Shown piece by piece: positions 5,890-34,014 of a DNA stretch of 35,489 bases. The notes beneath the pieces were generated by a model that saw nothing but the letters and a program-made list of their open reading frames with translations, ran no database searches and was not told the origin of the DNA. Positions within the stretch are counted from its first letter, which is position 1; every line of letters begins with the position of its first letter. This DNA is from Stramenopiles sp. TOSAG23-3 (Eukaryota): positions 1 to 35,489 of the forward strand of contig LT642199.1 of NCBI GenBank assembly GCA_900128585.1. Direction: 5' to 3'. Position numbers and translations under genes: made by a program.

Positions 5890-5962
5890 GAGAGTTTGTT
5901 TAAATTTTAAAGTAAAAAAGCGTAAGGTACTAGATGCGCATTTTTTTGGTGTCTTTTTTTTT

Positions 5963-6005
5963 AAAAACAAGAAAATTGGCTGTTGTTGTTATTTAAGTAA
6001 TTAAA
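5963..6005 (+). repeat. Dispersed intergenic element, copy 1 (core AAACAAGAAAATTGGCTGT at 5965-5983)
   Basis: Exact 19-mer shared with 26766, 30757 and 33656, followed by TTATTTAAGTAATTAAA as in the 30757 copy. Confidence 0.85.
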
Positions 6006-6240
6006 TATAGCTTCATCATACCCTAATCCTAACTTGGTTCTGTTATAGTATGTTTTATGATATTAAATATCTAATGTTGCAAATTTAGATCAGTTCTACA
6101 ATTGGGATAATCGTTAGAGAGTCTTAAAACATTACACTATGATATATCATTAGTTTTTTTTTTTTTAAATATGTAAATTATCATTTATTTTGCGCACTCG
6201 TATTTCAGACAACTGTAAAAATTCATTCCAACACGCGACT

Positions 6241-9200
6241 TTAGCGGACCCAGATGCCGACGACAGAGGGAATTTCTGCGTCGCTGCTACCCGATGCCCT
6301 CTTCGAATCAACTATCCCAGCGCATTTCGGTGTATGGTCAACCGAAACATAAAACGAAGTGTAGCCTTGTTGGGCATCGACTGACCAATCGCATTTCGAT
6401 TTGCTCGGTGGAACGCCTACGAGGCCGTAGGCATGACCATTGCATACGCCCATCGTCCCCGTCCCGGTGTACATTTTCCGTGGAAGGTTACAGTTGCCTT
6501 TCAGGCAAGTCACATCTACTGGACTAAAGTAAGAAGAATCTTGGCTATCCCTATCGTTGCAATTTCTTGCGGAGTGAAGCTCCGGGGCGACAGATTGGTC
6601 CTTTGGCGTTGGAATTCCGAATTTAACAACCTTTTGGTACGATTGCAAAGATCCGGTCGATTCTAAATTCTCGGCGGCCTTGTACGCGCTATTCCAGGAG
6701 TACGCCATGGACTCACTAGCCTGAACTACCCACAACGAGTTGATATTCGCGCTTCCCTTACGCTCAGACGGAGACCACTTCCCGTTGGTGGTCAACAATC
6801 GTCCACTCAGTTCACCGTGTTGAGCGTAGCCCAACAGTGTCCAGCCTCCTCCGTCCGTTGTCATATCACAGTATACTTCCGTGCCTTTGTACATTCTAGC
6901 GCAATCATCACTGTAACCGTTGCCGTTATCGTCGGCGCATGCAGCTCCAAAAGTGGTATGCTCAGGTGGGAAAATGGTGTAAATTCCATCCCCTCCGCCG
7001 GTCGCCAAGCCCTGCAATTGCTTGCAAGTCTTCGGGCGGGCCAGCCGAACGACAGCTTCCTCCCATTTTCTTCTCTGCGCATCTACAGCTTTCCTCTCTT
7101 TGTCTAATAAAGATTTGGCATTGGTCATATTTCTTTTGCACGGGGAATTTTCCGCGCAGGCCTCGTCTGGGGTCAACCCCGGAGGGGGTGTCTCCACAGT
7201 GTAATTGAAGACCATTACGTAGTTATCAGCCCCACAAGCGGTTTTGGCATCGCCAGCACATGGCATCGAGCACGAGGACATGGGCGCCTTATCAGCGGTT
7301 GGCATGTCTTCCCCACATACGCAATATTTGCCTGCCTTCACACCGGCGTACGTGAAATTTACATTTTGTCTATAGCATGCCGCGGCGCACTTGTCTGGCG
7401 TCATGTCTTCTTGTGCAACATGGGCGGTGTAAGGAAGGACAACTGGAAGGTCGTCGGGGGTCTTGGAACCACCAGATTTTGCAGCAAGAAGGTTTTCGGC
7501 TTTTTCCGCTGCCTTTTTCGCATTTTTGGCAGCTTCCGTCATCTCTGTCATGCGATGGTTGGACGATTCCTCCGCAGCTTTCAAGCCTTGGACTTCCTCT
7601 TCCATCTTCTTCAGTTTGGTGCGCATTGTGACAGCATCGCCCGATTTGTCAGATTCACTATCCGACAGGGATGTTTTCGCGGCTTCTGCTGCTTTCAACG
7701 CCTTCTGAAGGCGCACATCGTTGTCTTTCGCGTCTTTTGCTTCCTTGAGAGCATCGCGCGCTTCACCTTCCAGTGTTACCAGGGCGGAGTTGCTTCGATC
7801 CAGCGTTTCTTTGTAGCACCCAACCTCGACCGTCCCAAAAGTCTCCGATCCAGTTCCCGCCAACAATTTCATGACGGTTGCTCCTACTTGAGACGTTCCT
7901 GCGGGTGCATTGAGGGGAAGAATCTTGTCGGTGAACTCTCCGCCACGGCGGCGCACGTGGAAGACTTGTCGCCCAATGCGAACAGCTTCGCCACGCTCAA
8001 CCTTACCCCGCAAGTCACAGTTCGTTTCCAGGGTCAACGAACCCTGGATGACACTTCCAGTGCATGGAAGTGGTATCCAAACTGGGGCTCCTACGGCAGC
8101 AAATCTGTTGGCAGATTTTCCATACTTCCAGAATTTCGGGAAACGGCTATTGGGTCCAGCCACCGGGGAACCACGACGGTTTCCAGTTTCTCTTTCCTGC
8201 TCGCTCTTCATTTCTTCCGGGCTCATGGATGCGGTTTCTCCAGCATGGCGCACGTACGGTACACGGCCGCGCAGCTTTTTCTTGCTATCGCAGTTCTTGC
8301 ACTTGTCGCCAGTGAGGTCTTTCATTCCGCCACTAACGCCTTCGTCCCTCAATCGTTCGAGCTTGTTCAACTCCGATTCGTATGCGCCGCGCATGCTTCG
8401 CTGCTTCTGCATAATTTCTAGCTTGTACTTTTCTGAGCTCTGGGCGTATCCAAGCGCGAGTTTGTCGCGACGAGAGCGCTCCGATATGTATAGCTCGTCT
8501 AGACGGTCCTGCTCTCGGCGCCACGCTTCCTCAGTTTTTGCATCACGCAGGCGAAGGTCGTCTTCCAGTTTAAGTGTGTCCTGCCTCATCTTTTCGAGCT
8601 CACGCATATGCTTCTTGCGCGCCTCTTCGAGCTTGTGGTCTTCCTCTTCTCTAGAGTTGAAGTCTTGGCGCTCCTTTCGTAGCTTGGATTTGTCCCCTTT
8701 AATTGTGTTTGCTACGTGTTTCTTGTACTTCTCTGTTTCTTCCCGCAAGGCATCTCGCTTCGCGCGAAGCTCCTTCATGGCCTTCACCATGTCCCTGGTG
8801 GTCAACTCGGCACGCTTTTGTGATTCCTCCGTCATGGACTTGACGTCCTCTTCTAGCTTCTTCTGCACTGCGGCAACGCGCTTCCTCATCTCGGCGCGCT
8901 TCCTCTCCGCCAGCTCGTTTCGAGAGGGGGGCAAATGGCTCAGTGGGAAGGCGGGGGTGCTGTGAAACTTAGATGTGACTGGGTAGGGCGTCGGGGCTGG
9001 GCCACAGGCAGTCGATTCCATTGCGACTTCGCTCGGGGCACTCCCCATTTCATCGTAGCACAGGCAAGACAGGGTGGCATTGACGAGCATGGCAAAGTCC
9101 CCGCTGTCAATGTGCGCTGCTTGCTGGACCATCGCTTGGGCCTTGGCATCTACGCTCACGCTTTGCTTAAATCGGAACTCGCCGGGGTGTGCCAATTCAG

Positions 9201-12200
9201 CGGCTAGACTATCTCGTGCCGCAACCATTGCAAACGCCTCTGGACTCAGGCGACTGGCCACAGGGGAGTCGGACGTTACTACCGCGCTGACGCCCTTTTC
9301 CGCCAACATTTCAGAGATTTGGTTCAACTCCCAGTGCACTTTTTGCAATTGCTGGTGGGCCATCCCTTTCTTCTCCATCACCCGTGCCTCCGCGTTTTGC
9401 AGAAACGAGACGAAGTCCATGTGCGCGGCGTATTGCACGCGGCCTGCTACCCCAGCCATGGTGGTTTTGCTGCTCAATTCGAGGAACTGAGCGTTCATCC
9501 CCAACGCATCGGCGAAATGGGCCCCGCTCTCCACGGCGGCGCAGGCCTCCTTCAACGGCGACTCGTTCGCAACAAAGCCGTTGGGAAGGCCGTCTTTCCC
9601 CTTCGAAGCTCTAATAATACCCTCCTTCATCAGCTGCTTCTCCAACGTCGAAAACAAGGTAGTCCCTCGCGCCAAATTGAGGCACCGGACCACTTTGAAG
9701 GCGCGCGCGTTCTCTACCTTGGCCTTCTTTTCCGCGCCCGAGATCGCGGAGTAATTCCCACGCTCGCTCTCAGCCCTAGTGACGGTCGCATTCAGCCACG
9801 CCTCTACGGTGGCGACGTCGCGCTCAAGCATGGCGCGCTTCATGGTAACCTTTGCCCCACCATCGACCTTTGGAAATTTGGCGTCGACATCCCTCCATTC
9901 GTGGGAGTTCGACGTGGCGATGAACGGCGACCTGGCACTCAACCACGGGTTTCCCTTCGTTTCCAGAAGGCTTTCGTCGTCGCCGTTGAGGATGCCCACG
10001 AGCGGCCCGTCCGCGGTCGCATTTTCTGGGTTCTTTTTCTCCTCCTGTGCTTTCAGGTCCTCCAGGGAAGTCGCGTTCAGGTACTTGCCAAGCCCAGCGC
10101 ATTTGGACTTGACCGAATACGTAAGCCACCCGCAGCCCGCCGGCTTCGCAAACCCGCAGTTCTGGTTCACGTGGACCTGGCTGCGGCCGTTGGCAACGGC
10201 AATCTCGTACGTGCCGACATAGTGCTCGGGCTCGTGGTGAGGGCGCAGGCCAAGGCAGTCCTTCCTATCGCACCCGTACACGTGCATCCAGCACTTCGCG
10301 CCCGCCTTCAACGCTGCGCCCTGGGCCGTCTTCAACGCCGCGGTTTCGTGCCAGATCATGTCTGGGATCGCAGTTCCCATGTCGTTCGTTGCGTTCTTGG
10401 GCGAGTCCGAAAATGTGTAAATGCCGGCCGTCTGCGACGGGTCGTTGGACTGGCAGGAGACGCGAACAACGAGGTCGTCGTCGGCCATGAAGCAGTTGTC
10501 AAACTCGGGCGAACAGGTCTTTCCGACTTGGCCACCCTTGATGAGTGAGATTTCTACCTGGTTTCCCCGATTTTCGCACTTCTTCGCGGTGTGGCTTTTG
10601 TACCGGAACTCGGCCTCCTCTTCCGAGGAAAAGCCGCGAATGCCTGTGGCTCCGGTCGCGCCACCCAAGGCCTGGACGGCTTCGGGGAGGGATTCCTTGA
10701 CCTTTGGCACGAGCGGGATGTTCCCTAAGAGGTCCTTGGTTTTGATCGGGGCCACTTCGTCCTCGAACGTATTGGTCTCTGCAAGTTCTTGCTTGAGCAC
10801 GTTCAGCTTCTCCCTTGCGCAGTCATGCTGGGTGACGCACTCGGACACCTGGGCCCACTTCGCGCGAAGCGTCTCCTGGACCTTCTTGTGGTCGTCTTTG
10901 ATCTTGGTCAGCTTCAGGACGTTCTCCGCGCTGCAGACGGCCGAGCTGGTGCTCCCCCGAACCTCGCAGGCCGCCAAGCGCTCGCTGGCGCGGGTCAGCT
11001 GGCGCCCGTTAGCCTTGAGCTTTTGGGTCAGCTCCTTCCGCTCCGTCGTCTTGCTCAGGAAGCACTGCGCGGCCGCGGCGTCCCCCTTCGAGTCGGCAAT
11101 GGCCTCGCCGGTCATCCGCGTGTACTCGACGCGGACTTTTTCCAGCGTGCGCTTGGCCGCGCGTAGGCGCGCCGCCAGGGCGTCGTCTTCTAGGTGGGAC
11201 AGGTCGCCCTTCTGAAAGGTCGTCCGCATGGTCATGTGGCGCTGGCGCTCGATCTCGGTGTGTAGAGCGACCTCTTGCTTTGTCTTCTGTGCGGTCCACT
11301 TCCCGTGGCAGGCCTCGGCGTCCTTCTGGGCCTTGATGGCGTCCGCCTGGGCGGCGACGAGAGCCTTGCGCTGCGCGGTGAGCTGGTTGTGGTACGCCTC
11401 GCCAGGCTCGCGGCGGGCCTGGTACATCGTTGCGTCCGCGGTGGTGGCCAGCGTCTCGCCGACCTGGGCCAGCTCGTCCATGATGCCCGCCTCGCGGGCG
11501 ACGGCGGCCTTGCGCTTGGCGGCGCAGAGCCGGACCTGGCAGGCCGCGTAGCAGACGGTGTAGTTTCCTAGGGTGGTGACGCTGCACTGGTGGTCGCAGG
11601 AGTCGACCAGGGGGCTGGTATCGTTCCCGAAGTCGACGGTGGGACCCAAGGGCCCCTCCGGCAGCTTCTTTACGCGCTTGGGGGCCGGGGCCTTCCCGAA
11701 CTCGCAGTCCCCGCGCTTGAAGCAGTCCTCCCACTGCTTGCTCTGCTCGAGCTCCTGGCGCTCCCGGGCCTTCTCCTGCTCCTTGACGGCCTGCTCCTCC
11801 CGCTTCTTGAGGGCCTGCTCCTCCCGGCGGCGGCGCTCCTCCTCGGTCATCGGGGCGGGCTGGGGCTTGGGGTGGCGCGGCTTCAGCAGGTGGTGGTAGT
11901 CCGACATGTTGAAGTGCTTGACCTTCGGGGCCGGGGCTTCCTCGGCGTGGTGCTCGCAGCGGCAGGTGAGGAACTCCCCCTCGTTCTCCGCGCGGCAGTA
12001 GCAGATCGCGTGCTCGTACCGGGCGGTCATCTTGGCGATGATGTCCGACATGCGCATGACCTCGTCGGTGGTGACGACCCAGTCCTTGTTCTCGTAAAAA
12101 TAGGCCGTGGTGTTGGTGAACGGCAGGTCGAACCTGAGCTTCGGGACGATGTCCTTGTTCGGCTCGTAGATCAAAAGGGCGTCGGCGGGCTGCCGGTCGA

Positions 12201-12459
12201 CTATTTCCATTTCCGCGTTAATGTTCATTTCGATCCCGCGGGGGGTCGCACTCTTGCGCTCGCTGCTATAATGGTTCTTGTGGATGATGATGCCGTTCTC
12301 CGGCACCACAATCTTCTTGCCCGGCTGCTTTCTACTACTTCTAATATTCGCGTTCAACAAACTATTGACCCGCCTCCGGCCGGCCGTCTCCGAGAGGGCC
12401 GTCGCCGACGCGAGCGTTATTGCCAGCGCGAGGCATAGTACGACTCGTGCCAACGTCAT
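6241..12459 (-). CDS. Large secreted coiled-coil protein with WSC and C-terminal fibrinogen-like domains (2072 aa)
   Basis: Signal peptide MTLARVVLCLALAITLASATA. Long Ala/Glu/Lys coiled coils and Cys-rich patches. WSC pattern MTPDKCAAAC...YAGVKAGKYCVCG...CSMPCAGDAKTACG. Fibrinogen/intelectin-like PKTCKQL...DGIYTI...VYCDMTTDGGGWTL. Uninterrupted 6.2-kb ORF. Confidence 0.85.
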   Translation of the reverse strand: MTLARVVLCLALAITLASATALSETAGRRRVNSLLNANIRSSRKQPGKKIVVPENGIIIHKNHYSSERKSATPRGIEMNINAEMEIVDRQPADALLIYEPNKDIVPKLRFDLPFTNTTAYFYENKDWVVTTDEVMRMSDIIAKMTARYEHAICYCRAENEGEFLTCRCEHHAEEAPAPKVKHFNMSDYHHLLKPRHPKPQPAPMTEEERRRREEQALKKREEQAVKEQEKARERQELEQSKQWEDCFKRGDCEFGKAPAPKRVKKLPEGPLGPTVDFGNDTSPLVDSCDHQCSVTTLGNYTVCYAACQVRLCAAKRKAAVAREAGIMDELAQVGETLATTADATMYQARREPGEAYHNQLTAQRKALVAAQADAIKAQKDAEACHGKWTAQKTKQEVALHTEIERQRHMTMRTTFQKGDLSHLEDDALAARLRAAKRTLEKVRVEYTRMTGEAIADSKGDAAAAQCFLSKTTERKELTQKLKANGRQLTRASERLAACEVRGSTSSAVCSAENVLKLTKIKDDHKKVQETLRAKWAQVSECVTQHDCAREKLNVLKQELAETNTFEDEVAPIKTKDLLGNIPLVPKVKESLPEAVQALGGATGATGIRGFSSEEEAEFRYKSHTAKKCENRGNQVEISLIKGGQVGKTCSPEFDNCFMADDDLVVRVSCQSNDPSQTAGIYTFSDSPKNATNDMGTAIPDMIWHETAALKTAQGAALKAGAKCWMHVYGCDRKDCLGLRPHHEPEHYVGTYEIAVANGRSQVHVNQNCGFAKPAGCGWLTYSVKSKCAGLGKYLNATSLEDLKAQEEKKNPENATADGPLVGILNGDDESLLETKGNPWLSARSPFIATSNSHEWRDVDAKFPKVDGGAKVTMKRAMLERDVATVEAWLNATVTRAESERGNYSAISGAEKKAKVENARAFKVVRCLNLARGTTLFSTLEKQLMKEGIIRASKGKDGLPNGFVANESPLKEACAAVESGAHFADALGMNAQFLELSSKTTMAGVAGRVQYAAHMDFVSFLQNAEARVMEKKGMAHQQLQKVHWELNQISEMLAEKGVSAVVTSDSPVASRLSPEAFAMVAARDSLAAELAHPGEFRFKQSVSVDAKAQAMVQQAAHIDSGDFAMLVNATLSCLCYDEMGSAPSEVAMESTACGPAPTPYPVTSKFHSTPAFPLSHLPPSRNELAERKRAEMRKRVAAVQKKLEEDVKSMTEESQKRAELTTRDMVKAMKELRAKRDALREETEKYKKHVANTIKGDKSKLRKERQDFNSREEEDHKLEEARKKHMRELEKMRQDTLKLEDDLRLRDAKTEEAWRREQDRLDELYISERSRRDKLALGYAQSSEKYKLEIMQKQRSMRGAYESELNKLERLRDEGVSGGMKDLTGDKCKNCDSKKKLRGRVPYVRHAGETASMSPEEMKSEQERETGNRRGSPVAGPNSRFPKFWKYGKSANRFAAVGAPVWIPLPCTGSVIQGSLTLETNCDLRGKVERGEAVRIGRQVFHVRRRGGEFTDKILPLNAPAGTSQVGATVMKLLAGTGSETFGTVEVGCYKETLDRSNSALVTLEGEARDALKEAKDAKDNDVRLQKALKAAEAAKTSLSDSESDKSGDAVTMRTKLKKMEEEVQGLKAAEESSNHRMTEMTEAAKNAKKAAEKAENLLAAKSGGSKTPDDLPVVLPYTAHVAQEDMTPDKCAAACYRQNVNFTYAGVKAGKYCVCGEDMPTADKAPMSSCSMPCAGDAKTACGADNYVMVFNYTVETPPPGLTPDEACAENSPCKRNMTNAKSLLDKERKAVDAQRRKWEEAVVRLARPKTCKQLQGLATGGGDGIYTIFPPEHTTFGAACADDNGNGYSDDCARMYKGTEVYCDMTTDGGGWTLLGYAQHGELSGRLLTTNGKWSPSERKGSANINSLWVVQASESMAYSWNSAYKAAENLESTGSLQSYQKVVKFGIPTPKDQSVAPELHSARNCNDRDSQDSSYFSPVDVTCLKGNCNLPRKMYTGTGTMGVCNGHAYGLVGVPPSKSKCDWSVDAQQGYTSFYVSVDHTPKCAGIVDSKRASGSSDAEIPSVVGIWVR

Positions 12460-13335
12460 CTTTTCTACAACGGCAAGGACGAGCGGCTAGGCTAGCTGAC
12501 ACTACTATTGTGTGCTAAACCAAACGAACCAATTCTTTCCAACAGCAGACTAGACCAGAGATAAAGAAAAAACAACCCGCCCTTCTTCACAAGGATGCTA
12601 CAATACGATTACAGCAACACGAATGAATACAACGAACTAACTCTGTAAAGTGAACGTACTCTCGGACGAGCTAAGCTAACTACTCTAACTCTCACTCTCT
12701 CTCTCTCTGCACTATGTAAAGAACAAAGGACAACTATCTAATCAAGAATCACACACACTGTCTCTCTCTCTCTTTCCAACTTTCTTTCGTGAACAAGACC
12801 ATCTATCTACCTTTCTCTTTATAAAGGTCATTAACTCACTTGGTACCTACCTCACCTACCTAACCTTCATTTTACTTCCTTCACTTCCTCTAATGGATTC
12901 TTTTAAAATTTCTTCTTCTAAAAAGGTCTTTTTGTTCGTAGGATGTTAAAGTAAGCATAGCATTGGAAAAGAGATTCTGAAGGTTAATTATTTAACCCTG
13001 TAATGTCGGTACTGTGTTAGTATAGTATGTATTATGTATTAATGTGATAGGGTTGTTGAAGTATTAAGTACAGTTTATAGTGTTATGATATACAAGTATA
13101 ATTTATATTATATATCCTATGTATATATATTGTTTGTATGTATTAATTAATCTATATTTATATTGTATTGTTAATTTATTATATAAGTACATTGATTGAC
13201 ATCCCCCCCCTTTTTTTAATTTTTAGAATCAATTTCATTCCGTTACCTCTTTCCTTCTTTTTATTTCATTTAATTTAATTTAATTTAAATAGGGAGTTTA
13301 TATAGGAAAGGATGGTTTTATAGATGAGATGAAAT

Positions 13336-13523
13336 AAGGAAGGAAGGAAGTGAAGGAAGGGAAGGAAGTGAAGGAAGGAAGTGAAGGAAGGAAGGAAGGA
13401 AGTGAAGGAAGGAAGGAAGGAAGTGAAGGAAGGAAGGAAGTGAAGGAAGGAAGGAAGGAAGTGAAGGAAGGAAGGAAGGAAGTGAAGGAAGGAAGGAAGG
13501 AAGGAAGTGAAGGGAGGAAGGAA
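13336..13523. repeat. (GGAA)n microsatellite with periodic GT interruptions
   Basis: Directly visible GAAG runs punctuated by GAAGTGAAG. Confidence 0.95.
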
Positions 13524-13948
13524 TTAGTTTTGTTTTTATTATAATTATTTAAATACATATATTCATAGTCTAAATCTACTAAGTCTGAATCGAAATCGAA
13601 ATCGGAAAGCGATGATTAATTCATTCCATTCCATTTTCTTTCTTTCTTTCTTTTTTTATTTATCCAAAAGTTTATTTCATTTTAAACTCCAGCCTATTTA
13701 GGTTCTATCCTATTTTATACGAAGCGACAAAGGAAAGCAAAACCAACCACCCAACCACCCAGAAGAGAAGAGCCGCAGCAATTAATTTTCATTGAAACTG
13801 TACTTATCATTCGTATACTATTAATACATATATCCAATATAATTTATTTTCCACTTAAATACTGTTGATATCTAGCTGTATAGTGTACATATAAATATAT
13901 ATATATAAAATATCATAGCATCAAGATCAAAGCATGATGATTCGACTC

Positions 13949-14019
<71 letters not shown>

Positions 14020-14080
14020 NNNNNNNNNNNNNNNNNNNNNNNNNNNNNNNNNNNNNNNNNNNNNNNNNNNNNNNNNNNNN

Positions 14081-14155
<75 letters not shown>

Positions 14156-14157
14156 TC
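13949..14157. repeat. (CTTT)n microsatellite spanning an assembly gap
   Basis: Pure CTTT runs on both sides of the N block. Confidence 0.95.
14020..14080. other. Assembly gap (61 N)
   Basis: Run of N inside the microsatellite; true length and contiguity are uncertain. Confidence 0.99.
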
Positions 14158-14832
14158 GAAGCTGAAGTAGGTAGGTATAAAATATAATGTAGGGTTATGT
14201 AATAGGGCTGGAGATAAAGGAGACTGGAGAGATAAGAAACTAAGCTACAATTAAGGTATGAACAAATTAGAATTTTGGATGTATGTCTGTTATGTATTTA
14301 TATGCTGTGTGTATATATTTAGAGGTATACTTTTGTTTTCTACTAAAATTATTTTTTAGTTCTATTCCTATATAAGAACTTATTACATTCTAATTTAAAT
14401 ATATCAATTTAAAAATAATTTCATTGAAATCCCATTATAAACAAAACAATCCCTTATCATTAAAAAGGGTATCATTTTAACTCAATATATTTAATTATAT
14501 AATCATATCCTTAACATAAAAACGTACCATCCGCCATCCATTAAACAAAATAAACAAAATAAACAAAAATAATAATAAATAATTTGCTCTTCTCTTCTTC
14601 TTATAGTTAATATAGCAATACCATCATAATACATATGAAGCTGTATAATAAATAATAATAAAATTAAAGAAATAAAAGAAGTCAAGTATTATTATACAAC
14701 ATAAGCACAGCATTAGACTACAACAAAGAAGAAGAAGAGATTGGATTGGATTGGATTCGCAATTAGATTGTGGATAACAGAATTTTACAAATAGTTCGAT
14801 AGACAGATAGTGTAGATAGAGTGACAGATCGT

Positions 14833-14864
<32 letters not shown>

Positions 14865-14921
14865 GACGTGGACAAGTGAAAGTAATCTATCACCTTTAAC
14901 GTTCAACTTCAAAGAGATATT

Positions 14922-14951
<30 letters not shown>
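14833..14951. repeat. (TAGA)n (14833-14864) and (TA)n (14924-14951) microsatellites upstream of dyskerin
   Basis: Directly visible tandem runs. Confidence 0.9.
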
Positions 14952-14953
<2 letters not shown>

Positions 14954-15014
14954 TTTCTACATTGAAAATAACTGTTCTACTCTTTTCTCTCTCGCACCAA
15001 GAAGAAGACAGAAG

Positions 15015-16394: not shown

Positions 16395-16656
16395 AAAGGA
16401 AAAAGGGAAACCCACTAACTTCGATGGAAAAGGCTGGCGAACGCGTGGTTCGTGTCCCGGCACCAGGCGCTTACTTCGCCCCCAGGCATGTCTCTGTAAA
16501 AAATAAACTCTTTTTTTAAACATGTAATATCATATGTGTGTTTGATAAATTTTCAAAGCCTTTTATATTTCGTATTAAGTTATTTACCACAGCGCGCACG
16601 TTTTAAACTTTTTGCAGTTTTCCGTGCCTGTCCTCCTGGTTTCGTCTGCCACACCT

Positions 16657-17847: not shown

Positions 17848-18685
17848 TTGTTCTAGGAAGACGGGGGGGGCGAGAGAGAAACCAATGAGATAATAAGTAA
17901 GCAGTCCTATCACGCCCAACAAGAATTCCTGAAAACAACCTTCCCTACAAAGAAACAAACAGTATTAATAATTATATATTCGTCGTCTATAGATATATAA
18001 AGCTAATGATAAACATTAGAATTCTTTGTACCGTACCGCCGACCGCCAGTTGGTTGGAATAATGAAGTTTTCATATTCAATTTCAAAGTAGTACCTAGAA
18101 GAAAGAAGGAAGAAAGAGGAGGCAGGTACAGGTAGGTATAATAGGCTATAGGAGAAGAATTTAAAATATTCGTTCTTCTATCTAGTCTCTTCTGTTCTGT
18201 CTTCTAGTAGTCGTCTGTTCTTCTAGGCTCTAGTGGATCTAGACTCTAGGCTCTTCTAGCCCCCACCACACAGAACACAGAGAGGAGGAGTTAGAATAAA
18301 ATAATAAATCCGTTTTGTTGTTGAGGATAATTTTTTAATGGTATGTCTATATATAAGCTATATGAATATATTAATATAAAAATATAAAAGATCATCATAT
18401 TTATTATTTTATTAAATATGAATATATCTAATATCTACACACCATTATTTATAATAAAAAAATAGAATACTACTACTTTTTTACGACGACACGAACGATG
18501 GATGATCTATATATATATTTTTACAACATGCATGTGGAAAATATAAATTATGATTTTATATATAGATGTGTGTTCATGATGAATTGAAGAACATGGTTTA
18601 ACATTTCTACCATTCGTCACGGAAAAACATTTTTTTTTTCATTCACACTTAACACTTCCGCGCGCACGTCTTGACTGAATGAACG

Positions 18686-20377: not shown

Positions 20378-20539
20378 AAAGCAGGAGGGGGATCGCTTTT
20401 TTTTAAAAACAAAAATCATAATTCTTACGCTGTTATTTTGGCAACCAATCTTAAGACAATATGAATACAAGCGCAAGGGGGTGCTCTGCTTTTCGCATTA
20501 CCCCCGTATCTCTGGCGGCGTCTATTTAAACACTTTATT

Positions 20540-25900: not shown

Positions 25901-26622
25901 TGAAAGAGAAAGTACAAACGTGTGAAACACGCTTACGAAAAGCCGACAAAAACGTCGAAACGTTGGAAAAAGAGCTGGCCCAAAGGTCGGTGACGACCCC
26001 CATCAATAGCAGAACTAAAAGTTCAACCAGAAGCTCGTCCAAAAAAAGCGTCTCGCGAAGTGCGACCAGAAGCGCACCCCGCAGCGCCCCCAAAACTTCA
26101 AATAAAGTTACGTCGGCTCGAAAAAGTGGGAAAAAACGAAAGAGTGAAAGTCCTCCCAGCGACAGGCCAACCAAAGAAAGCAAGTCGATATCCGGCATTT
26201 TGAAAGCATCCAGTTCTCAGCAAGAGGCAACGAAATCAACCAAGCGCGTAAATTTCAATAATGAACTTTCTGTAAAAGAACTATCGTTCGATGAGGACTC
26301 CTTTCCTCTTTCGCCAAGTGCAGAAAGTAATGGAACCAGAGAGGAAACCCCTGCAAAGAAAAAAGTGGCTTCAATTTTATTGTCTGGTCGTGCCCAAAAC
26401 ACTGTTCCAGAAAACGAAGAGAATTCGATGACGACTCGCCAAAAGGAATTGGAAGAGTGGCGAAAGCGAAAAGGGCGCGCCGCTCCAAAACGGAAGGGGC
26501 TGATGGGCGGGGCCACCAGGGTAAAGCAACCCACAAAATCTTCCCGAAAGCCCCTTCGGACGCGGTCAACAGCCCTTAGTAGCAGTAGAAACGCTGCCCG
26601 ATCTTCCTGCCGGTGGAATTGA
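22939..26622 (+). CDS. Kinesin-14 with N-terminal calponin-homology domain and internal motor flanked by coiled coils (KCH-like layout)
   Basis: CH-like segment FAAALQDGSLLCKLAQSL...QNLSRFSRFCRAINLP...IQDL...LVTCLCDI. Kinesin-14 neck RRKVFNELQRLRGNIRVLCRVRP, then YGQTGSGKT, NEHSSRSH, DLAGSER, HVPFRDSKLT. First ATG at 22939. Confidence 0.92.
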   Translation: MNSPTVSFGGSLIFKSKPNQGKKKKTKVNDKTIANIISEGWAQRIAEARALIVEELGIEENTIATEELFAAALQDGSLLCKLAQSLSDSRGLKLQIRPSRSAANAEARVVHQNLSRFSRFCRAINLPSESVPSIQDLTSMRLKPLVTCLCDIKRLKENDNFIVYAATWEAFCTPKKSGSGSPFSKSKSGVKSTLKMAIENSITKSEKMKSGGSIMQALRESGQVVPGLFSSSPAAMFHLSARKHLQTSSAIKEEGGAPEFNGDGVTENLLKSLNKVEEKAKLTSDNRVLEDKLEEALMEIETLKALVSQKDQGIEVMKAECKEAVHGIQAKRDELKLATKTVNASVSVLESKEAEINTWTQKYHSAVALHAKEKKEIIETHDLEIQKLKDTLTASEKNVDNLVVELSETKMRESELTKKVKDLSYDVEEHVEQNREHVAALKDLTSQNKKMSNILDSTFQLNKSAMLKTKVRFQGMQNSYGALKDTVRSQLAAIKNDFNGVGRTLIQKCQVADAEKKEVVENYEREIESRRKVFNELQRLRGNIRVLCRVRPLDSESDKGTIKFQDNENMFISPSETGRAKHFEYDTIFRPSSTQEQVYKEVSPMVQSSMDGFHSCIFAYGQTGSGKTYTMQGPKSDPGVYTRSLKELFLIQEQRKSTHNYKICVSMVEIYNEKIRDLLAPPSSLNDGPTLLEIKRGKSGNYLPNANVMQVNSIDDIHRAMARGEENRSVGATKANEHSSRSHCLLIITTDGEEMESGSVMHGRLVLVDLAGSERVGKTDAQGERLREAKNINKSLSALGNVINALSNKQNHVPFRDSKLTYLLQDSLSKDNKVLMIAQISPSCADYQESVCSLDFAGRARGVQLGGAKAKTQNMELPRLQAQLKKAKEQLDTQNDKMKGFVEMRRSIKKMEKENDALQEKLESLEANNQNSNRGMKEINSAMVEKQAACRALEKKLVDSKKQIFSMKEKLHTCESKLSASEKLVGTMKEKVQTCETRLRKADKNVETLEKELAQRSVTTPINSRTKSSTRSSSKKSVSRSATRSAPRSAPKTSNKVTSARKSGKKRKSESPPSDRPTKESKSISGILKASSSQQEATKSTKRVNFNNELSVKELSFDEDSFPLSPSAESNGTREETPAKKKVASILLSGRAQNTVPENEENSMTTRQKELEEWRKRKGRAAPKRKGLMGGATRVKQPTKSSRKPLRTRSTALSSSRNAARSSCRWN

Positions 26623-26752
26623 GGAATGAGGAAAACAGTGATTACAAACCGGTGTAACCCTGGTGATAACACGCGAGTAGAAAGATCTCTCAAGCATAAC
26701 TTACACCTTCCGAAGTATCATAATTCTTAATTTGATTTAGTTACCACACACA

Positions 26753-26795
26753 CACGTTAACATAAAAACAAGAAAATTGGCTGTCACGTTAACAT
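26753..26795 (+). repeat. Dispersed element copy 2 (26764-26784) flanked by 11-bp direct repeat CACGTTAACAT
   Basis: CACGTTAACAT-AAAAACAAGAAAATTGGCTGT-CACGTTAACAT read directly. Confidence 0.88.
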
Positions 26796-26812
26796 TACGT
26801 TACTCTTACAAT

Positions 26813-28493
26813 TTACCTGTACATTCTCCGCAACCGTAAGTCTTCAATCCCAAGGGTATACGCAACGCCAAAACTGGGCTCTAAATTAATTACCGCGTGC
26901 GCCCAGCCTGCTGGGATGTAAAGAGCCTCACCTGTATGCTGCACGACTTCTAATGGCCGAATTGGCAGAGACGGGTAGTATACGTTTAACCATGTTCGCA
27001 TATCACATACACCAGGTCCATAGTAAGCCCTTGGAGGCAGTAAATACCACTTTTTCGTCCCTCCTAAAAGAACATTAAGCGCAGACTGATGGAAGTGAAA
27101 GTACGTGCCCGAACCCGCAAAGCCCACGTAAAAAAGAGGCAAAATTTTTTCATTCGTTTGGAAAGTTCCATAACGTCTGCTCGGGAAGTATGATTCCAAA
27201 AAGGCAGGGTCTAATGCGTCCAAGATCGAAGAGTCGTTTGCAATGGGGCCAAAAATATACTCGTCGCGCAGTTTTCCAACGTCGGGTTGCCCGTCTAAAA
27301 AATTCGAAACAGTAGTTCTATTTTGGAAAAAAAGTGCGTTGCCGGCGGCAGCATGGTCGCAATCAAAACCATTTATCACGGGCATAGTCCTGCAATCTTC
27401 AACCCACTGGCGGGGAACAATGTCTGTTGATGAGCTTACTGATACCACTTGAGACCCTACTTCACTAATTAATTTCTCTAAGCTCCATTGGAATGACCCA
27501 GACAGTAGCCCGGGAAACACGACGGGTTTGCCTAGTAAGCTGTATCCATTCCAAAATACTTCTTTAGGCGGCAGCGATGCAAGGCTTTCAATATGCGATT
27601 TGCTTTCCAACACGAGGTTTTCCCCAAAGTAATCTGTTATTGCGGTGTACCTGTTTGGAACAATGCGGGCTTTCGTATTTGCTACGGGGGGCAATGCTGC
27701 ACCGAGAAGGACTTCTTTCGCATACGGTGTAACAGCATCGGTAATGTAGGTACATTTTCCGGGCCGAGCTTCGGAGTCAACGTACTCCAAAACACAGGAT
27801 TCAACGACGTTTCGATACAAATATTCCGCAAGCACATTGTCCTCTGCCCCCCCCCCCTTTATCTTTCATATACGCAATGTAGAGCTTTAGGCTGGCCTTT
27901 ACTTGGTTAACATCCGGAAATTGCTGGATCACCACCTCTGCCAGGTTGAATTTCTCTGCAACGTCATAGGCCGCAAGCTCTATAATTTCACGTAGGAGCT
28001 TTACCCAGTTCGCGGGAGTGATGCCTTGCGGGTTGCGCATGACATCTGTCGCCACCAGATTGGCTAAGCTCATACGAGATCTAATAATGTTTCCCTCTAA
28101 TTTTTGTTGTGAAATCTTAATCAGTTTGTCTTTAAATGATGGCTCAAATGTACTGCTGCTAGAGACGCTTGACTGTCGCACTTGGTCCAGCAAACTTTTG
28201 ATGCTGTCAACTATTGTGTTCAATTTCTTGTTGCCTTCTATCTCTGGTGTGCTATATATACGGTTCAGTTTGTTTAACGTTTTCTCTAGGACATAAGCCG
28301 CGTCATAAAAGTAGCCATCCCGAGACATGTCCTCGGCGAATGACAGAATCGTCGAAATCCTCTCTGTTTGCATGGAAACATTGTTTATAGCACCGGAAGA
28401 AAGCGGGCTGTGGGCGCGCGTGTCATGGTTTCCCAAACAAGAGAAGAAAACAAACCAAAAGACCCCGACACTGCAGACCAGCACTATCCTCAT
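26813..28493 (-). CDS. Secretory-pathway JmjC (cupin) oxygenase, JMJD8-like; apparent frameshift at G11 run (27847-27857)
   Basis: Upstream ORF (27801-28493) has a signal peptide and helical region. Downstream ORF has GSGTYFHFH...GTKKWYLLPP...QHTGEALYIPAGWAHAVINLE and its ORF-track start is GTG. Removing one G joins them as KDKGGGAEDNVLAEYLY (559 aa). Confidence 0.8.
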
Positions 28494-29338
28494 GATTGTG
28501 TCTCGGATCTATAATCTGATAACCAAAGGTGCGTTTGAACCGGTTCTTATTCGTAAATCTCCAGTCGTTTTAGCTCAATTGCTGTGTATAGATAGAGAGA
28601 AGAAAACTGAATATGCAATATTAATAATTACTATATTATTTTACCAAGGTAGGTATAATATTTTATTATTATAATACCAATATATTATTATTTTGAATTT
28701 TGTTTTTTTTTAGTCTCGTCGGTGAAGAAGCAATTTCTTCTGCGCTGCATTTTTTTTTTTTTTTTTTTGGGCAAAGTTCGAAGATGATCCTCACAACATA
28801 ATCACAGCATAGTATTCGACTATAATTACTAGGACCAGAAATGAGAATTACTATAGACTACTAAGGCCCACACAAATAAGTACAATAATAAAAATAAATA
28901 CATTCGACAGCATTGGGTATATTTTTCTATTTTTTATTTATTGATGCTGTGCTGATGTATTTTTGTCTTTCATAATTGAATGTCGTCGTCGTTTGTTCTA
29001 CGAATAAATAAAAAAATAATAATACAGTAAAAAACTTTTTTTTAAATTGTTTCACCACGCCATCCACGACGTGTGTCACCGTCGTAGTATGATGATTATA
29101 ATATATTATTATTAGGACTATTAATTGAGAGAAAAAAAGAAGAGAGTAGTAGGCGCTATATATATTCAACTAACAATCACAACTTCTTGACATTTTGCTT
29201 TTGTTTGGTATGTAGACAAAAGTAGAACGTGAAATGTTTCTTGTGTTTCACGTGTCTTTGTGAATGCTTCAAAAAGAGTTTGGCAATACCTCTTCCTTTG
29301 TCTACAGCTATTGAACGTTATTTAAAACACGCGCATAC

Positions 29339-30685
29339 ATGAGGGTCTCCACTGTTCCTTCTTCCCTTCGTAGAGTTGGTTGGGCCAGCTGTGCTCGGCG
29401 TGCCGCTTTCAGCTCTGACGCTGCCCGTCGCCCGCCCACGGCGTGGCCGAGCCAGGAGGACATCAAGAAGAGTGCTTCCCCTCATTGGCGCGAGGAAGCT
29501 ACAGACGATTTGGTGCTTTTGGGGAGGAAGGCCATAGGGAACAAAAAGTTTAAAGTCGGAATAGAGTGTTTCAAAGAGTCTGTCGAACTGTTGAAACGCA
29601 GCGAAACCCATTCTCAATTCCTCGCCACTGCGACCCCCTCTGCGAGAAACAGTCTGAATGCCCTGGGGGTAATGAGATTAATTTGCGGTGATATTTCGCA
29701 GGCAACACAACTCCTAGAAGACGCCCAGCGTGCGCAAGACAGCATATCGGAATCTGGAATGGGTGACGACAATTTTTGCGATCGGGCTGGCTTGCTGAAC
29801 GACAGGGCAATCCTGCACGCATACAAGGGAGAGATGGACGAATCAGAAAAGCTACTGAAGCAATGCTACTACATGGTGAGCAGGGCGTACCGCCCTTCCA
29901 ACCGCGCTATTGCGGCGTGTTTAGGAAACCTCGGCGAGATCAATTGTATAAATGGAGACTTCAAAGTGGCTGTAAGGAATTTTGAAAAAGCGTTGTTCCA
30001 ATTGCAGAAAGATGATGGAAACAAAAACAGCTTTCTTGACATCCTACACTCGAACGTTCAGGTTAAGCTGATGGCAAGCATGGGGAAGGCAACCAGGATG
30101 CAGGCGACAGACCCAGAGTGCGTGAAAAAATGCCGAACGTTGCTGAACGATGCTCGCATTAGTCTAGAGGGGGGGCTACTCGCAGGAAATGCCGACATGT
30201 CAGGGGAGGGCATTGACCAGGAATCGGAGGTGGACCGTGTGTATATAACGTCGCAGGAAGGCAGTTGTGACGCAGCTTCCGGAGATTACGTTGCTGCGTC
30301 GCAACACTTTCTGCGCGCCTTCGAAATTTCTAGAGAACTGAACAAGGCCGGTTTGGAAATGCCTGATTTTCATTTAATTTGTGAAAATAACCTCGCTATT
30401 TTTTCCGACAACGTAGAAACCGCCCAGTCTCGGATAAAGGTGTGCATGCGGAGCCATGGAAATACGAGCTCAAAACTGACTAAGGCCATTGAGCACAACC
30501 ATAGGGTCATATTTGGTGACAGCATTGGTGGGGAAAGCGCGGCAGTCGATTCTGGCCAAGCAGAAAGGCTAGGCTTGCCTGGAGAAAAAGTCGTCTACCA
30601 ATTGAACCACCCTAGCTTTATATTTGGATTCGGTGTTGTGGCCAATCAACGCCCATCCGAATTCTCGATGTTGAAAGCGTCATGA
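29339..30685 (+). CDS. TPR-like repeat protein with probable mitochondrial targeting peptide
   Basis: Arg/Ser/Ala-rich N-terminus (...CARRAAFSS). Helical repeats SLNALGVMRLICGD, LLNDRAILHAYKGE, CLGNLGEINCINGDFKVAVRNFEKAL. Confidence 0.75.
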   Translation: MRVSTVPSSLRRVGWASCARRAAFSSDAARRPPTAWPSQEDIKKSASPHWREEATDDLVLLGRKAIGNKKFKVGIECFKESVELLKRSETHSQFLATATPSARNSLNALGVMRLICGDISQATQLLEDAQRAQDSISESGMGDDNFCDRAGLLNDRAILHAYKGEMDESEKLLKQCYYMVSRAYRPSNRAIAACLGNLGEINCINGDFKVAVRNFEKALFQLQKDDGNKNSFLDILHSNVQVKLMASMGKATRMQATDPECVKKCRTLLNDARISLEGGLLAGNADMSGEGIDQESEVDRVYITSQEGSCDAASGDYVAASQHFLRAFEISRELNKAGLEMPDFHLICENNLAIFSDNVETAQSRIKVCMRSHGNTSSKLTKAIEHNHRVIFGDSIGGESAAVDSGQAERLGLPGEKVVYQLNHPSFIFGFGVVANQRPSEFSMLKAS

Positions 30686-30756
30686 TCCCATTGCTATAAT
30701 CATATCAAACAACAAATTTGCTATATTTCCTTGATGATAGTCAATATTTTTTATTT

Positions 30757-30817
30757 AAACAAGAAAATTGGCTGTTATTTAAGTAATTAAAATTTATGTA
30801 CTGCGAGAACTGCGAAC
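30757..30817 (+). repeat. Dispersed element copy 3 (extended form)
   Basis: 19-mer core plus TATTTAAGTAATTAAA and ATGTACTGCGAGAACTGCGAAC, homologous to 33656-33718. Confidence 0.85.
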
Positions 30818-31108
30818 TTTTTTCTTTATCATAATTAGGAATAATAATGTTTGTTGCTGCCTGGTTTTTGCTGAATGCTGCTTCCTGCTTCCTTGGCTTT
30901 GGTTGGTCTAACCCCCGCCCTCAACAACAACAACGACGACGAACGACGATGCGACGACGATAATAATAAAAAAAAAAGATACGAGGAGGGAGGATAACCA
31001 ATAAGAAGCAAGAAGAAGAAAGGAAGAAGAAGAAGATTAAAATTATTATAATAATAAAAATAAAAAATAATAATAATAATGAAGAAGAAGTAATACCTTG
31101 GTACTTCT

Positions 31109-31133
31109 TTAAATAACTGCCAATTTTTCGTTT
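31109..31133 (-). repeat. Dispersed element, degenerate inverted copy
   Basis: Reverse complement reads AAACGAAAAATTGGCAGTTATTTAA versus consensus AAACAAGAAAATTGGCTGTTATTTAA. Confidence 0.65.
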
Positions 31134-31313
31134 TTTAAAGTACGGTACATAATTAAAAAAAGAAGCGAATCTGCTGTGAATCTTGAGTGCCAAACAACTT
31201 TATTTCAAAGCCTGCAATTTATAGATACTTCGCGTTTGATTGTCATAGTTCGCATTGACATCGTTTTCCCCAAGCGTGTATACAGTTGCTACCCGTGGCT
31301 ACGCAGATAAACC

Positions 31314-33545
31314 ATGGAAGCGGAAGATATTCTATACGCCGAAGGCGTTTACCGAAGTTTCGCTGAACTCCCTACCATTACTGGCGGTGTGATGACGAAA
31401 ACAAAAGACGGTTCAAACGTGAAAATATCCCTTACAAAGAATCAGAAAGATGTTGTAAACAACAGCAAGAATAAACTGTTGAGCGAATTCTATGTCTCTA
31501 CTCAGACGCCGAGTTTAATTGTCGAACCTACCCTATTTCCACTTTCGCCCAAAACGGTCCTTCACTTGCCTTCTCCAACTGGTAAGTTTTCCCTTAGACT
31601 TATAAAAGAAGACAGTGACAAGAAAGGTGGCAGCGACGGCCCTAATTTTGTGTTTGAAATATACGACCGTTCCGGGAGACTCCACCGCGTAGAATCCCAG
31701 GGCGTTCATGGTCAAGTATTCTTAGGCCACCCATTTGGCTCTGTCGTCTGGTCGCCTTGTGAAACCAAAATCGGCTACGTTGCGGAGCGAAAGAAGAAAG
31801 ACAGGCTGAAGCTGTTTTCCCAGGACAAAGACGCAAAGAGTGGCGAGGATGGGGTAAACGGAATGCGGAGTGAGTTTGAATACGAAGACGATTTTGGCGA
31901 ACAAATGAACGGTGCTCAACAGCCAGTGCCGTTTATTATTGATTTGGGCAAGGCCAAAGTGACGATTCAACCGGTCAACATTTCCGAAGAGTTTAGCACG
32001 CTAGCGTTTGGTCAGTTTCAGTTTACCCCCAAGAACGACCTTGTCGTTGCTGTAGGATGGAGAACGACCCCGAGGCGGTTCGGCATAATCTACTACAACA
32101 CAAGGCCCTCCAAACTGTACATGTTCAACGTTAAGGGGCCGCCAGCAACGAAATGCATTACCCCGAATGAGGAGGATTACAGCGTTTGCAACCCGCGTTT
32201 TTCACCTAGCGGTGCCAACCTGGCGTATCTTACGACGCGGAAAACAGCCGTGCACAACTCTTGCAGTTGCTTGAGACTGGTCCCATGGAAGAGCGTGCTA
32301 GAGACAGATAATGCAGCACCAGAAACAATTATTGATTATGTTGAAGTACCGAATGGTCCAGGCGGGTTTTGTGGTCTGTTTGACCAAGGCACATGGCCCA
32401 AACAACCTTTCTTGAACGAGGAGACCATCATCTTCTCCTCGTTGCACCGTTCTATATTAAAAATCTGCTGCGTCAATCTTGCCACTAAAGCGCTATCGAC
32501 GATGCCACTCCCATTGGCACTCGAGGCGAACGAAACGGTCGGTTATTGCGCAAGTGCGCTCTTTGCGCGCGACAATACCGTTCTCTGGAAGTTTAACCGG
32601 CCGAACTGTCCCGACAGATGCTTTGTGTCCCAGTTTGGCGAAGAAGGTGGCGTCCAGCACCTCGAGATTTCCCGGGAGAAATGCAGGTCAGCCCTTCCAT
32701 CGCACAGAATATTTTCAATGGAGAAAGATGGAATGGTACTGGAAGGCCTGCTCTCGTTGCCCTCTAACGGGGGTGACAAACTACCCCCGTTGATTCTGTC
32801 CCCACACGGAGGGCCGCACAGTGCAACAATGTCCAGTTTTAACGCGACCATATGCACGCTGAACCACTTGGGGTTCGCCGTTTTGCAGGTAAACTACAGG
32901 GGATCCTTAGGGTATGGGCTCCGTTCTCTCGAAAGTTTGCCTGGAAAAGTTGGAAGGCAAGACGTTGACGATTGCATGTCTATATTAAACGAGGCCTTGC
33001 AAAGCGGTGAGTGTAGCAAAAGCGAGGTCTTTGTGCTTGGGGGTTCCCACGGTGGTTTCTTAACAGGTCATTTAATCGCACAGTTTCCGGACAGGTTTCG
33101 CGCAGCAGCGGCTCGAAATCCTGTACTAAACATGGCGGGAGAGTTTGTTGCGACGGACATTCCAGACTGGTGCCACGTGGAGGCTGGCACGGGGGTAGAC
33201 GTTGTGAATGACGGACTCCCGTACGTGCCAACACCGCAAATTTACTCGTTGCTGTATGAGACCAGCCCCATCTCTTTGGTAAACAGTGTGAAAACCCCGT
33301 TGATGCTGATGGTAGGTGGTGCGGATATTCGAGTCCCATGGGCCCAGAGCTTTGATTTCTTTCACATACTAAGGTCCAAAGGCGTCCCAGTGAAACTCTT
33401 GGCGTACCCGAAAATGCAGCATGCGCTGGCCGACTTTTCTCGAGAAGAGGCCGACGTTTGGATAAACGTTATCATGTGGTTCAGCAAGTTCGTGAAGGAG
33501 AGGGGTGACCTTGACCCAAATTTTTGCACAGCTCGTGCCCTCTAG
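31314..33545 (+). CDS. APEH: Acylamino-acid-releasing enzyme (acylpeptide hydrolase, S9C)
   Basis: N-terminal propeller (VWSPCETKIGYVAERKK, EYEDDFGEQM), PHGGPHS, VNYRGSLGYG, nucleophile GGSHGG, RNPV...TDIPDW, Asp in GGADIRVP, His in MQHAL. Confidence 0.95.
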   Translation: MEAEDILYAEGVYRSFAELPTITGGVMTKTKDGSNVKISLTKNQKDVVNNSKNKLLSEFYVSTQTPSLIVEPTLFPLSPKTVLHLPSPTGKFSLRLIKEDSDKKGGSDGPNFVFEIYDRSGRLHRVESQGVHGQVFLGHPFGSVVWSPCETKIGYVAERKKKDRLKLFSQDKDAKSGEDGVNGMRSEFEYEDDFGEQMNGAQQPVPFIIDLGKAKVTIQPVNISEEFSTLAFGQFQFTPKNDLVVAVGWRTTPRRFGIIYYNTRPSKLYMFNVKGPPATKCITPNEEDYSVCNPRFSPSGANLAYLTTRKTAVHNSCSCLRLVPWKSVLETDNAAPETIIDYVEVPNGPGGFCGLFDQGTWPKQPFLNEETIIFSSLHRSILKICCVNLATKALSTMPLPLALEANETVGYCASALFARDNTVLWKFNRPNCPDRCFVSQFGEEGGVQHLEISREKCRSALPSHRIFSMEKDGMVLEGLLSLPSNGGDKLPPLILSPHGGPHSATMSSFNATICTLNHLGFAVLQVNYRGSLGYGLRSLESLPGKVGRQDVDDCMSILNEALQSGECSKSEVFVLGGSHGGFLTGHLIAQFPDRFRAAAARNPVLNMAGEFVATDIPDWCHVEAGTGVDVVNDGLPYVPTPQIYSLLYETSPISLVNSVKTPLMLMVGGADIRVPWAQSFDFFHILRSKGVPVKLLAYPKMQHALADFSREEADVWINVIMWFSKFVKERGDLDPNFCTARAL

Positions 33546-33655
33546 GTAGCATTTATTATGGTAGGCGGGCTGACTGTGTTTAATTTAGGAATTGAGGAGA
33601 AAAGAAAGAAAAAAACCTTATTTTTGTTTCTAGATATGATATCTAAATTAATTAA

Positions 33656-33718
33656 AAACAAGAAAATTGGCTGTTATATTTATAAGTAATTAAATTAATG
33701 TACTACTGCGAACTGAAC
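33656..33718 (+). repeat. Dispersed element copy 4 (extended form)
   Basis: 19-mer core, then TAAGTAATTAAA and ATGTACTACTGCGAACTGAAC. The sub-motif ATGTACTGCGAACTGA recurs at 33760-33775. Confidence 0.85.
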
Positions 33719-33848
33719 TCTAAATTTAGACATTCGACATTCGAGGTTTACATTCCTTCATGTACTGCGAACTGATCTTTGCTCTTTTGGTGTTACTAAT
33801 CGATATACCCTTGTCACTTAGTGTTGACTATCATTCTCAGGTGTACTC

Positions 33849-33984
33849 CATGCATGATCTGAATCCTATTATAAGAATCCCAAGAGTAAGTGTAAAAAAA
33901 CCTATGATAATTCATTTTATCTAAATTTATACTTCGTAGTAAATGTAATAACGGGATCGACATTACCGATTCGGATCATGCATG
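33849..33984. repeat. 17-bp inverted repeat with 102-nt spacer
   Basis: CATGCATGATCTGAATC (33849-33865) versus GATTCGGATCATGCATG (33968-33984): 16/17 Watson-Crick pairs plus one G-U. Confidence 0.8.
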
Positions 33985-34014
33985 ACTTAAAAAATAACAG
34001 CCAATTTTTTGTTT
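33985..34014 (-). repeat. Dispersed element, inverted copy
   Basis: Reverse complement reads AAACAAAAAATTGGCTGTTATTTTTTAAGT. Confidence 0.8.

Follow-up and report, generated by a model that had tools for sequence, protein, structure and literature searches.

What is the 19-nt sequence that recurs just behind the genes in a 35,489-nt stretch of DNA from Stramenopiles sp. TOSAG23-3 (contig LT642199.1, positions 1 to 35,489; hereafter the window)? A preliminary description of this DNA offered two kinds of answer: a lineage-specific signal acting at gene 3ʹ ends, or a small mobile element that targets gene ends. The analysis presented here favors the second. The 19-mer is very probably the invariant end of a family of short, noncoding retroposons resembling short interspersed nuclear elements (SINEs) and moving by target-primed reverse transcription. 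Target-site duplications, a fixed end combined with variable truncation, bodies that share one tail, and occurrence in at least 132 stretches of metagenomic DNA all bear out the mobile-element alternative. A claimed new gene-end signal is thus replaced by a concrete retroposon family, one that is nonautonomous, has a shared 3ʹ tail, and is previously unprinted; the kind of element itself is already known. Neither the motif nor its complement is printed in the literature searched.

In the window, exact copies of the 19-mer start at 5965, 26766, 30757 and 33656, each on the + strand, and no further match with up to three mismatches is present beyond these four. Shuffled sequence contained the exact 19-mer 0.03 times on average, and none of 100 shuffles reached four. 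A 12-nt core, AAAATTGGCWGT, searched with up to one mismatch, gives six matches (shuffled mean 0.76; six reached in 0 of 100 shuffles), comprising the four exact copies and two sites on the - strand, 31116-31127 and 33997-34008. The stops of the open reading frames (ORFs) that precede the sense copies end at 5889, 26622, 30685 and 33545, and the corresponding - strand ORF begins at 34287, so that the stop-to-copy distances are 75, 143, 71, 110 and 272 nt. Spacers that include a gene 3ʹ end, 2,334 nt in total, contain all six copies; divergent or 5ʹ-side spacers, which amount to 8,031 nt, contain none (P ~1.3e-4 by length). The preliminary description was therefore accurate in placing four exact copies on the + strand, a near copy on the - strand and a sixth, degenerate copy, in its five distances to stop codons, in judging the copy number to be beyond chance, and in finding no copy in divergent promoter spacers.

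The window copies consist of a common tail, which contains the 19-mer, followed by variable amounts of a body that belongs to one of several types (A, B and C). They are listed here with their similarity to copies in metagenome contigs, whose loci are numbered from L001 onward.

5963..6046, + strand: copy 1, about 84 nt long, with some 60 nt of body type B behind the tail and the far end missing; exact 19-mer at 5965-5983
26753..26763: left target-site duplication of copy 2, CACGTTAACAT, an 11-nt direct repeat whose word is unique to the locus
26764..26784, + strand: copy 2, a 21-nt insert made up of the tail alone (AA and the 19-mer), 100% identical to positions 1-21 of every reference copy
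26785..26795: right target-site duplication of copy 2, CACGTTAACAT, the second unit of the locus-unique 11-nt direct repeat
30757..30806, + strand: copy 3, about 50 nt in which the tail runs into the beginning of body type A, 92% identical over 51 nt to positions 3-53 of L001
31109..31135, - strand: copy 4, about 27 nt, tail only and degenerate, 89% identical over 28 nt to reference positions 1-28
33654..33865, + strand: copy 5, 212 nt long, with about 190 nt of body type A behind the tail; far end truncated
33963..34014, - strand: copy 6, a near-exact tail at 34014-33988, then type A positions 188-209 at 33984-33963

Over 83 nt, copy 1 shares 86.7% identity with the full-length type B copy in L038, at positions 2-78 of the latter. 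Copy 5 matches positions 1-204 of L001 with 87.4% identity over 215 nt and eight metagenome copies with 84-89% identity; it lies head-to-head with copy 6. Copy 4 is antisense to the upstream TPR gene, and the ATG of the next gene stands about 180 nt downstream of it.

The family extends well beyond the window. A scan of metagenome contigs for the exact 19-mer returned at least 132 stretches with 148 occurrences, and the counts given below are among the matches listed. Six exact matches were found in 596 Gb of prokaryotic genomes; five of these have unrelated flanks and no extension and are chance background, and the sixth, in L136, is a true copy. L136 is a 4.1-kb contig in a metagenome-assembled genome labeled uncultured Dehalococcoidia, carries a typical type B copy with a full tail, and is very likely a misbinned eukaryotic contig. 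Viral contigs contained no match. One of the 148 occurrences, in L072, lies inside a 1049-aa ORF without the extension and is taken as a chance match.

The 19-mer is followed by the extension TAT in 124 of the 137 usable copies, and by TAAGTA and AATTAAA in about half. On the other side, conservation ends 1-2 nt before the motif (A at -1, 0.89; A at -2, 0.61; T at -3, 0.70), beyond which only A/T-richness remains. Since conservation stops beside it, the 19-mer marks one edge of a longer unit. Bodies of at least three types are joined to a common tail of about 40 nt, which reads (A)AAACAAGAAAATTGGCTGTTATTTAAGTAATTAAA on the 19-mer strand, and a short internal block also recurs in types A, B and C. 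Among type B copies, L038, L021 and L096 are independent and end at one far position, which sets the full length of this type at about 335 nt; full-length copies measure about 300 nt for type A (L027, L001) and about 250 nt for type C (L101/L129, L006). No similarity between nonallelic loci was found past about 340 nt, and the elements are accordingly short and noncoding. Identity within the family ranges from 84% to 98%.

The marks of insertion carry the argument for a retroposon. Direct repeats of at least 9 nt flank 42 of 133 sites and 7 of 126 control sites, the latter displaced by 79 nt; only exact words were counted, so that diverged repeats are missed. When restricted to words unique to their locus, the count is 25 of 131 sites against 2 of 124 controls. 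These locus-unique duplications are 11 nt long in 11 cases, 12 nt in nine, 13 nt in three and 14 nt in one, with one additional case of 25 nt. The last belongs to L022, where copies at 2001 and 2513, 512 nt apart, have identical 25-nt left flanks; this is a local tandem duplication of a spacer segment, element included, and no target-site duplication. The inserts enclosed between duplications are 21-335 nt long. When types A, B and C are aligned, one end is seen to be fixed at the 19-mer and the other cut back variably.

The length defined by the duplications can be compared with the extent of similarity to other family copies. Across all 44 rows the two correlate (Spearman 0.71), and for inserts of at least 60 nt they agree in 11 of 18 rows (63/66, 78/77, 110/109, 151/148 in two allelic rows, 170/174, 184/180, 189/187, 190/188, 295/299 and 335/336, duplication-defined length first). 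The seven disagreeing rows are 125/72, 133/147, 172/61, 257/213 twice, 262/210 and 323/307; L022 (487) is the locus duplication already described. Below 60 nt, BLAST extents overshoot into the A/T-rich flanks. The DNA directly before the fixed end reads T-T/A-A-A, and the flanks of the 137 usable copies contain no target motif beyond TTA/TAA.

A fixed end, variable truncation and duplications of variable but bounded length together point to target-primed reverse transcription, and from this mode of insertion it follows that the element RNA is the complement of the strand on which the 19-mer reads. The RNA would end in ...AUAACAGCCAAUUUUCUUGUUU(U)(U), with the complement of the 19-mer as the last stretch before a short U run. 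An endonuclease and a reverse transcriptase supplied by an autonomous partner would nick A/T-rich DNA after TTA/TAA, and the exposed A-rich DNA 3ʹ end could then pair with the terminal U run and prime cDNA synthesis. Priming at the U run would explain why, on the primed strand, the 19-mer opens every insert. Synthesis that often aborted early would leave tail-only copies, and a second nick 11-14 bp away would generate the target-site duplication. Such behavior has precedent: families of long interspersed nuclear elements (LINEs) are mostly 5ʹ-truncated, and SINEs share LINE 3ʹ tails under "stringent" recognition (PMC3747384). Transcription of the element by RNA polymerase III would be a guess, prompted by the terminal T run only.

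Several observations weigh against the retroposon reading. Exact duplications are present at only 19-32% of sites, and of the 41 repeat words, 16 derive from the repeats themselves, through nested or tandem copies. No empty, preinsertion allele was found among the loci compared, all from outside the window, and all allelic pairs carry the insert. A reverse transcriptase or endonuclease match was obtained in none of the 63 flanking ORFs scanned with Pfam (of 119 nonoverlapping ORFs of at least 230 aa), and no partner bearing a reverse transcriptase and the same tail, whether a LINE or a Penelope-like element, appeared among the flanking ORFs. A tRNA, 5S or 7SL head likewise found no Rfam match at E<=1 in eight loci with full-length copies, and ARAGORN predicted 0 genes, but models of this kind could miss a head that has diverged. 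The T6 run found inside body type C, in the RNA sense, speaks against RNA polymerase III. The tail RNA lacks a stable fold (z-scores -0.23 to +1.37), unlike many "stringent" LINE and SINE tails. Finally, in L044 and L130, a 10-nt duplication surrounds a whole inverted pair, an outcome unexpected from single-primer insertion.

Clustering of 502 flanking ORFs revealed no recurrent ORF family. The neighbors are unrelated host genes, for example those for MCM7, prolyl-tRNA synthetase, Sec24, glycine-cleavage T protein, CFAP298 and ODAD1. A hammerhead ribozyme was found neither at E<=1 in the eight loci nor at the gathering score in the window.

One rival is that the 19-mer is a host cis-element for mRNA 3ʹ-end formation, termination or 3ʹUTR regulation in the sense orientation, or, in a weaker form, that retroposon tails have secondarily been co-opted for such a role. 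Position speaks for it. Among ORFs of at least 150 aa adjoining the listed copies, the upstream neighbor shares the strand of the copy 68 times and runs against it 10 times, and the downstream neighbor runs against it 58 times and shares it 7 times; copies therefore adjoin gene 3ʹ ends 126 times and 5ʹ ends 17 times, a bias matched by all six copies in the window. The median distance to an upstream same-strand stop is 115 nt, with 59 of 68 copies within 300 nt. Moreover, the tail is A/T-rich with AATTAAA-like words, and parts of the region occur in marine or seawater RNA runs, a sign that these genes are expressed; the small word shares involved are not used to gauge habitat or expression level.

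Orientation tells against such a signal. Where both neighbors are known, 43 copies lie in convergent, 13 in tandem and 1 in divergent spacers, a count that is biased toward short (convergent) spacers by the flank of up to 2 kb available per locus. Tandem spacers, the one setting in which orientation is unambiguous, contain 5 sense and 8 antisense copies. In 41 convergent spacers, after subtraction of the insert length, 19 copies lie nearer to their sense gene and 22 nearer to their antisense gene (p=0.76; median distances 128 and 139 nt). Distances to the stop codon run from 10 to 1029 nt, and a sense copy follows only 5 of the 11 Pfam-supported window genes. In addition, the copies show insertion marks, long bodies unrelated to any signal, and tandem and inverted clusters. 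Thus, of the proposed 3ʹ-end role, the nonrandom position with respect to genes stands and the strand bias does not, and a polyadenylation, termination or factor-binding signal that acts in sense is not borne out. A cis-element of either form must be considered improbable.

The preliminary description had also noted that copies stand in sense behind genes. This holds for one gene in each case, but convergent gene pairs flank four of the six window copies, which are consequently antisense to the other gene; the copy at 26766 lies 143 nt from the stop of its sense gene and only 28 nt from that of the antisense gene. Spacers between Pfam-supported genes of the window comprise five convergent, four divergent and one tandem, such that gene direction alternates almost strictly and nearly any copy behind a gene is sense to one neighbor. 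The "all sense" pattern of the window is a small-sample effect of this convergent gene order. The spacers are A/T-rich, the convergent ones short (162-741 nt) and the divergent ones long (727-2555 nt).

The 3ʹ-flank bias itself could arise in two ways, and the data fit either. Insertions near promoters may be purged by selection in a compact genome, or integration may be steered to termination zones by some cue other than sequence. TTAAA/TTTAA words are about twice as dense in 3ʹ spacers, the elements themselves contributing part of this density.

A second rival treats the 19-mer as the terminal inverted repeat of a miniature inverted-repeat transposable element (MITE) and single copies as broken MITEs. 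Like MITEs, the 19-mer elements are small, noncoding, abundant near genes and in some cases paired in inverted orientation. The arrangement of neighboring copies was assessed for the 63 that have 700 nt on both sides. An inverted core lies within this distance on the body side of 12 copies and on the other side of 1, so that the tails of a pair face outward; two pairs in the window face each other at 378 and 360 nt. Further, in L044 (2001-2185) and its allelic twin L130, inverted tails span 185 nt with diverged arms, and the 10-nt direct repeat AGTAAGGGTA encloses the pair. The same pair might instead record a two-primer insertion event.

The two-ended structure with a fixed duplication that a MITE implies is not found across the family, and for this reason the MITE reading was rejected. 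No inverted partner lies within 700 nt of 51 of the 63 copies, and of the 19 distinct inverted pairs, just one has a duplication around the whole pair (2 of 21 rows when allelic twins are counted). Single-ended inserts of 21-335 nt have their own duplications of 11-14 nt, an outcome impossible by cut-and-paste transposition. In L013, the two arms are duplicated separately. In L027, a copy is inserted into an older inverted copy, as its duplication consists of sequence from the older element, and the interiors of the window pairs are unrelated. A MITE origin is, overall, very improbable. At least 7 of the 19 inverted pairs abut or nearly so. Direct tails within 700 nt occur to the right of 12 and to the left of 8 of the 63 copies, and stand 28-118 nt away in 10.

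An artefact (library adapter, assembly chimera or vector remnant) might be entertained for a draft assembly with an N gap at 14020-14080, but it has next to no probability, and the adapter origin raised in the preliminary description fails, given that the copies are internal to contigs of several independent public assemblies, are absent from viral contigs, and lie within diverged family sequence (84-98% identity) flanked by duplicated unique host DNA.

Among known mobile elements, the family invites comparison with three further systems. The first comprises SINEs whose 3ʹ tail is that of a partner LINE, such as the eel SINE and UnaL2. These are likewise short and noncoding, join bodies to one conserved 3ʹ tail, lack poly(A), are truncated to varying extents at the 5ʹ end with the 3ʹ end fixed, and have target-site duplications. 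In contrast, the 19-mer family has no detected tRNA, 5S or 7SL head, no tail stem-loop and no partner LINE among the flanking ORFs, and it differs further in its many inserts of 21-60 nt, its narrow 11-14-nt duplication and its common tandem and inverted clusters. The second, EhSINE/EhLINE of Entamoeba, likewise pairs a SINE with a LINE in a protist whose genome is dense in genes; it has target-site duplications, and its distribution relative to genes has been studied. It has no sequence relationship to the 19-mer family, belongs to a different host lineage, and is described in an abstract as inserting without targeting (PMC1635306).

The third system, Penelope-like elements, resembles the family in its arrangements. 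Such elements show heavy 5ʹ truncation, tandem or inverted insertions, and nonautonomous derivatives with common 3ʹ ends (PMC8557442). Craig et al. describe partial tandems and 5ʹ-adjacent inverted truncated copies in Penelope-like elements as unseen in LINE insertion (PMC8557442). The nonautonomous Chlamys elements and MRC1 of Chlamydomonas, in particular, show head-to-tail partial tandems, inverted truncated copies that abut the 5ʹ end and so leave the 3ʹ ends facing outward, a resemblance to the autonomous element that is confined to the 3ʹ end, and no poly(A). The 19-mer family has no hammerhead match, and most Chlamys and Naiad elements are also said to lack one (PMC8557442). The targets differ as well, with (CA)n, (C)n and (TA)n microsatellites reported for Penelope-like elements and A/T-rich TTA/TAA sites with clear duplications in the 19-mer family. 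No GIY-YIG/reverse transcriptase partner was seen among the 63 Pfam-scanned flanking ORFs. The word "stramenopile" is absent from the main text of PMC8557442, and the sections consulted report no endonuclease-bearing member from that lineage.

By analogy with these elements, the outward inverted pairs and tandem tail-only copies lean toward a Penelope-like rather than a LINE partner for the retroposon family. Nested insertion into older copies, as in L027, also yields outward-facing pairs and counters this preference. A bolder proposal is that an endonuclease-bearing Penelope-like element mobilizes the family in a stramenopile-like marine protist and that integration is directed to convergent termination zones, where the tails possibly serve as terminators in both directions. 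This is a speculative possibility and on balance unlikely. Its signs are the outward pairs (12 versus 1), the tandem tails, the 11-14-nt duplication and the 126:17 positional bias, none of which separates targeting from selection. If true, directed integration between convergent genes would amount to a "safe-haven" strategy for a retroposon in a compact genome.

For wider biology, the 19-mer belongs to an ordinary kind of element, and its interest is higher for mobile-element biology. Nearly exclusive residence behind genes, very short tail-only inserts and a tight duplication of 11-14 nt are unusual and could show how retroposons survive in compact genomes. The tail is also a useful marker with which repeats in 3ʹ spacers can be masked and eukaryotic contigs in prokaryotic bins, such as L136, recognized.

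The window contains a second repeat family, with a different tail and outside the 19-mer family.

6076..6159, - strand: copy of the second repeat family, 83% identical over 84 nt to a copy in L083

Its end reads as an A run followed by CAAATTATATAGTATGTTTTAAGACTCTCA on the strand shown, or, in the RNA sense, as TTG and then a T run. The 17-mer of this family, allowed up to two mismatches, has 17 matches across the metagenome loci and the window, and the family is also present in L008, L012, L022, L071, L083, L095, L104 and L108. Its apparent lifestyle is the same as that of the 19-mer family. The window copy shares the convergent spacer at 5890-6240 with copy 1, and repeat remnants make up about half of that spacer. 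A telomere-repeat-like block, CCCTAATCCTAAC, occurs in type B copies (at 6022-6036 in the window and in L038, L018 and L021) as well as in the second family, and in both families it stands about 60-75 nt from the fixed end.

The window as a whole is compact and intron-poor. Pfam domains identify two kinesins, dyskerin, ankyrin, EF-hand, TPR and JmjC proteins, an acylaminoacyl-peptidase and a C2HC zinc-finger protein. Stramenopiles, at 74-79% identity, make up most of the closest named relatives of the dyskerin, which also include a fungus; the host is tentatively regarded as a marine, probably stramenopile-like protist. At 6241-12459 on the - strand, a 2072-aa ORF with a single WSC domain reaches 65% G+C at 10-12 kb, far above the window average, and its sequence is probably that of a repeat-rich surface protein. 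The JmjC/cupin gene at 26813-28493 (- strand) is split into two overlapping ORFs, 26813-27835 and 27801-28493, which points to a short intron or a frameshift. Simple repeats include (GAAA)n at 1-82, a GAAGG/GAAGT-type microsatellite at 13315-13540, and a long (TTTC)n run at 13942-14164 that contains the 61-N assembly gap at 14020-14080.

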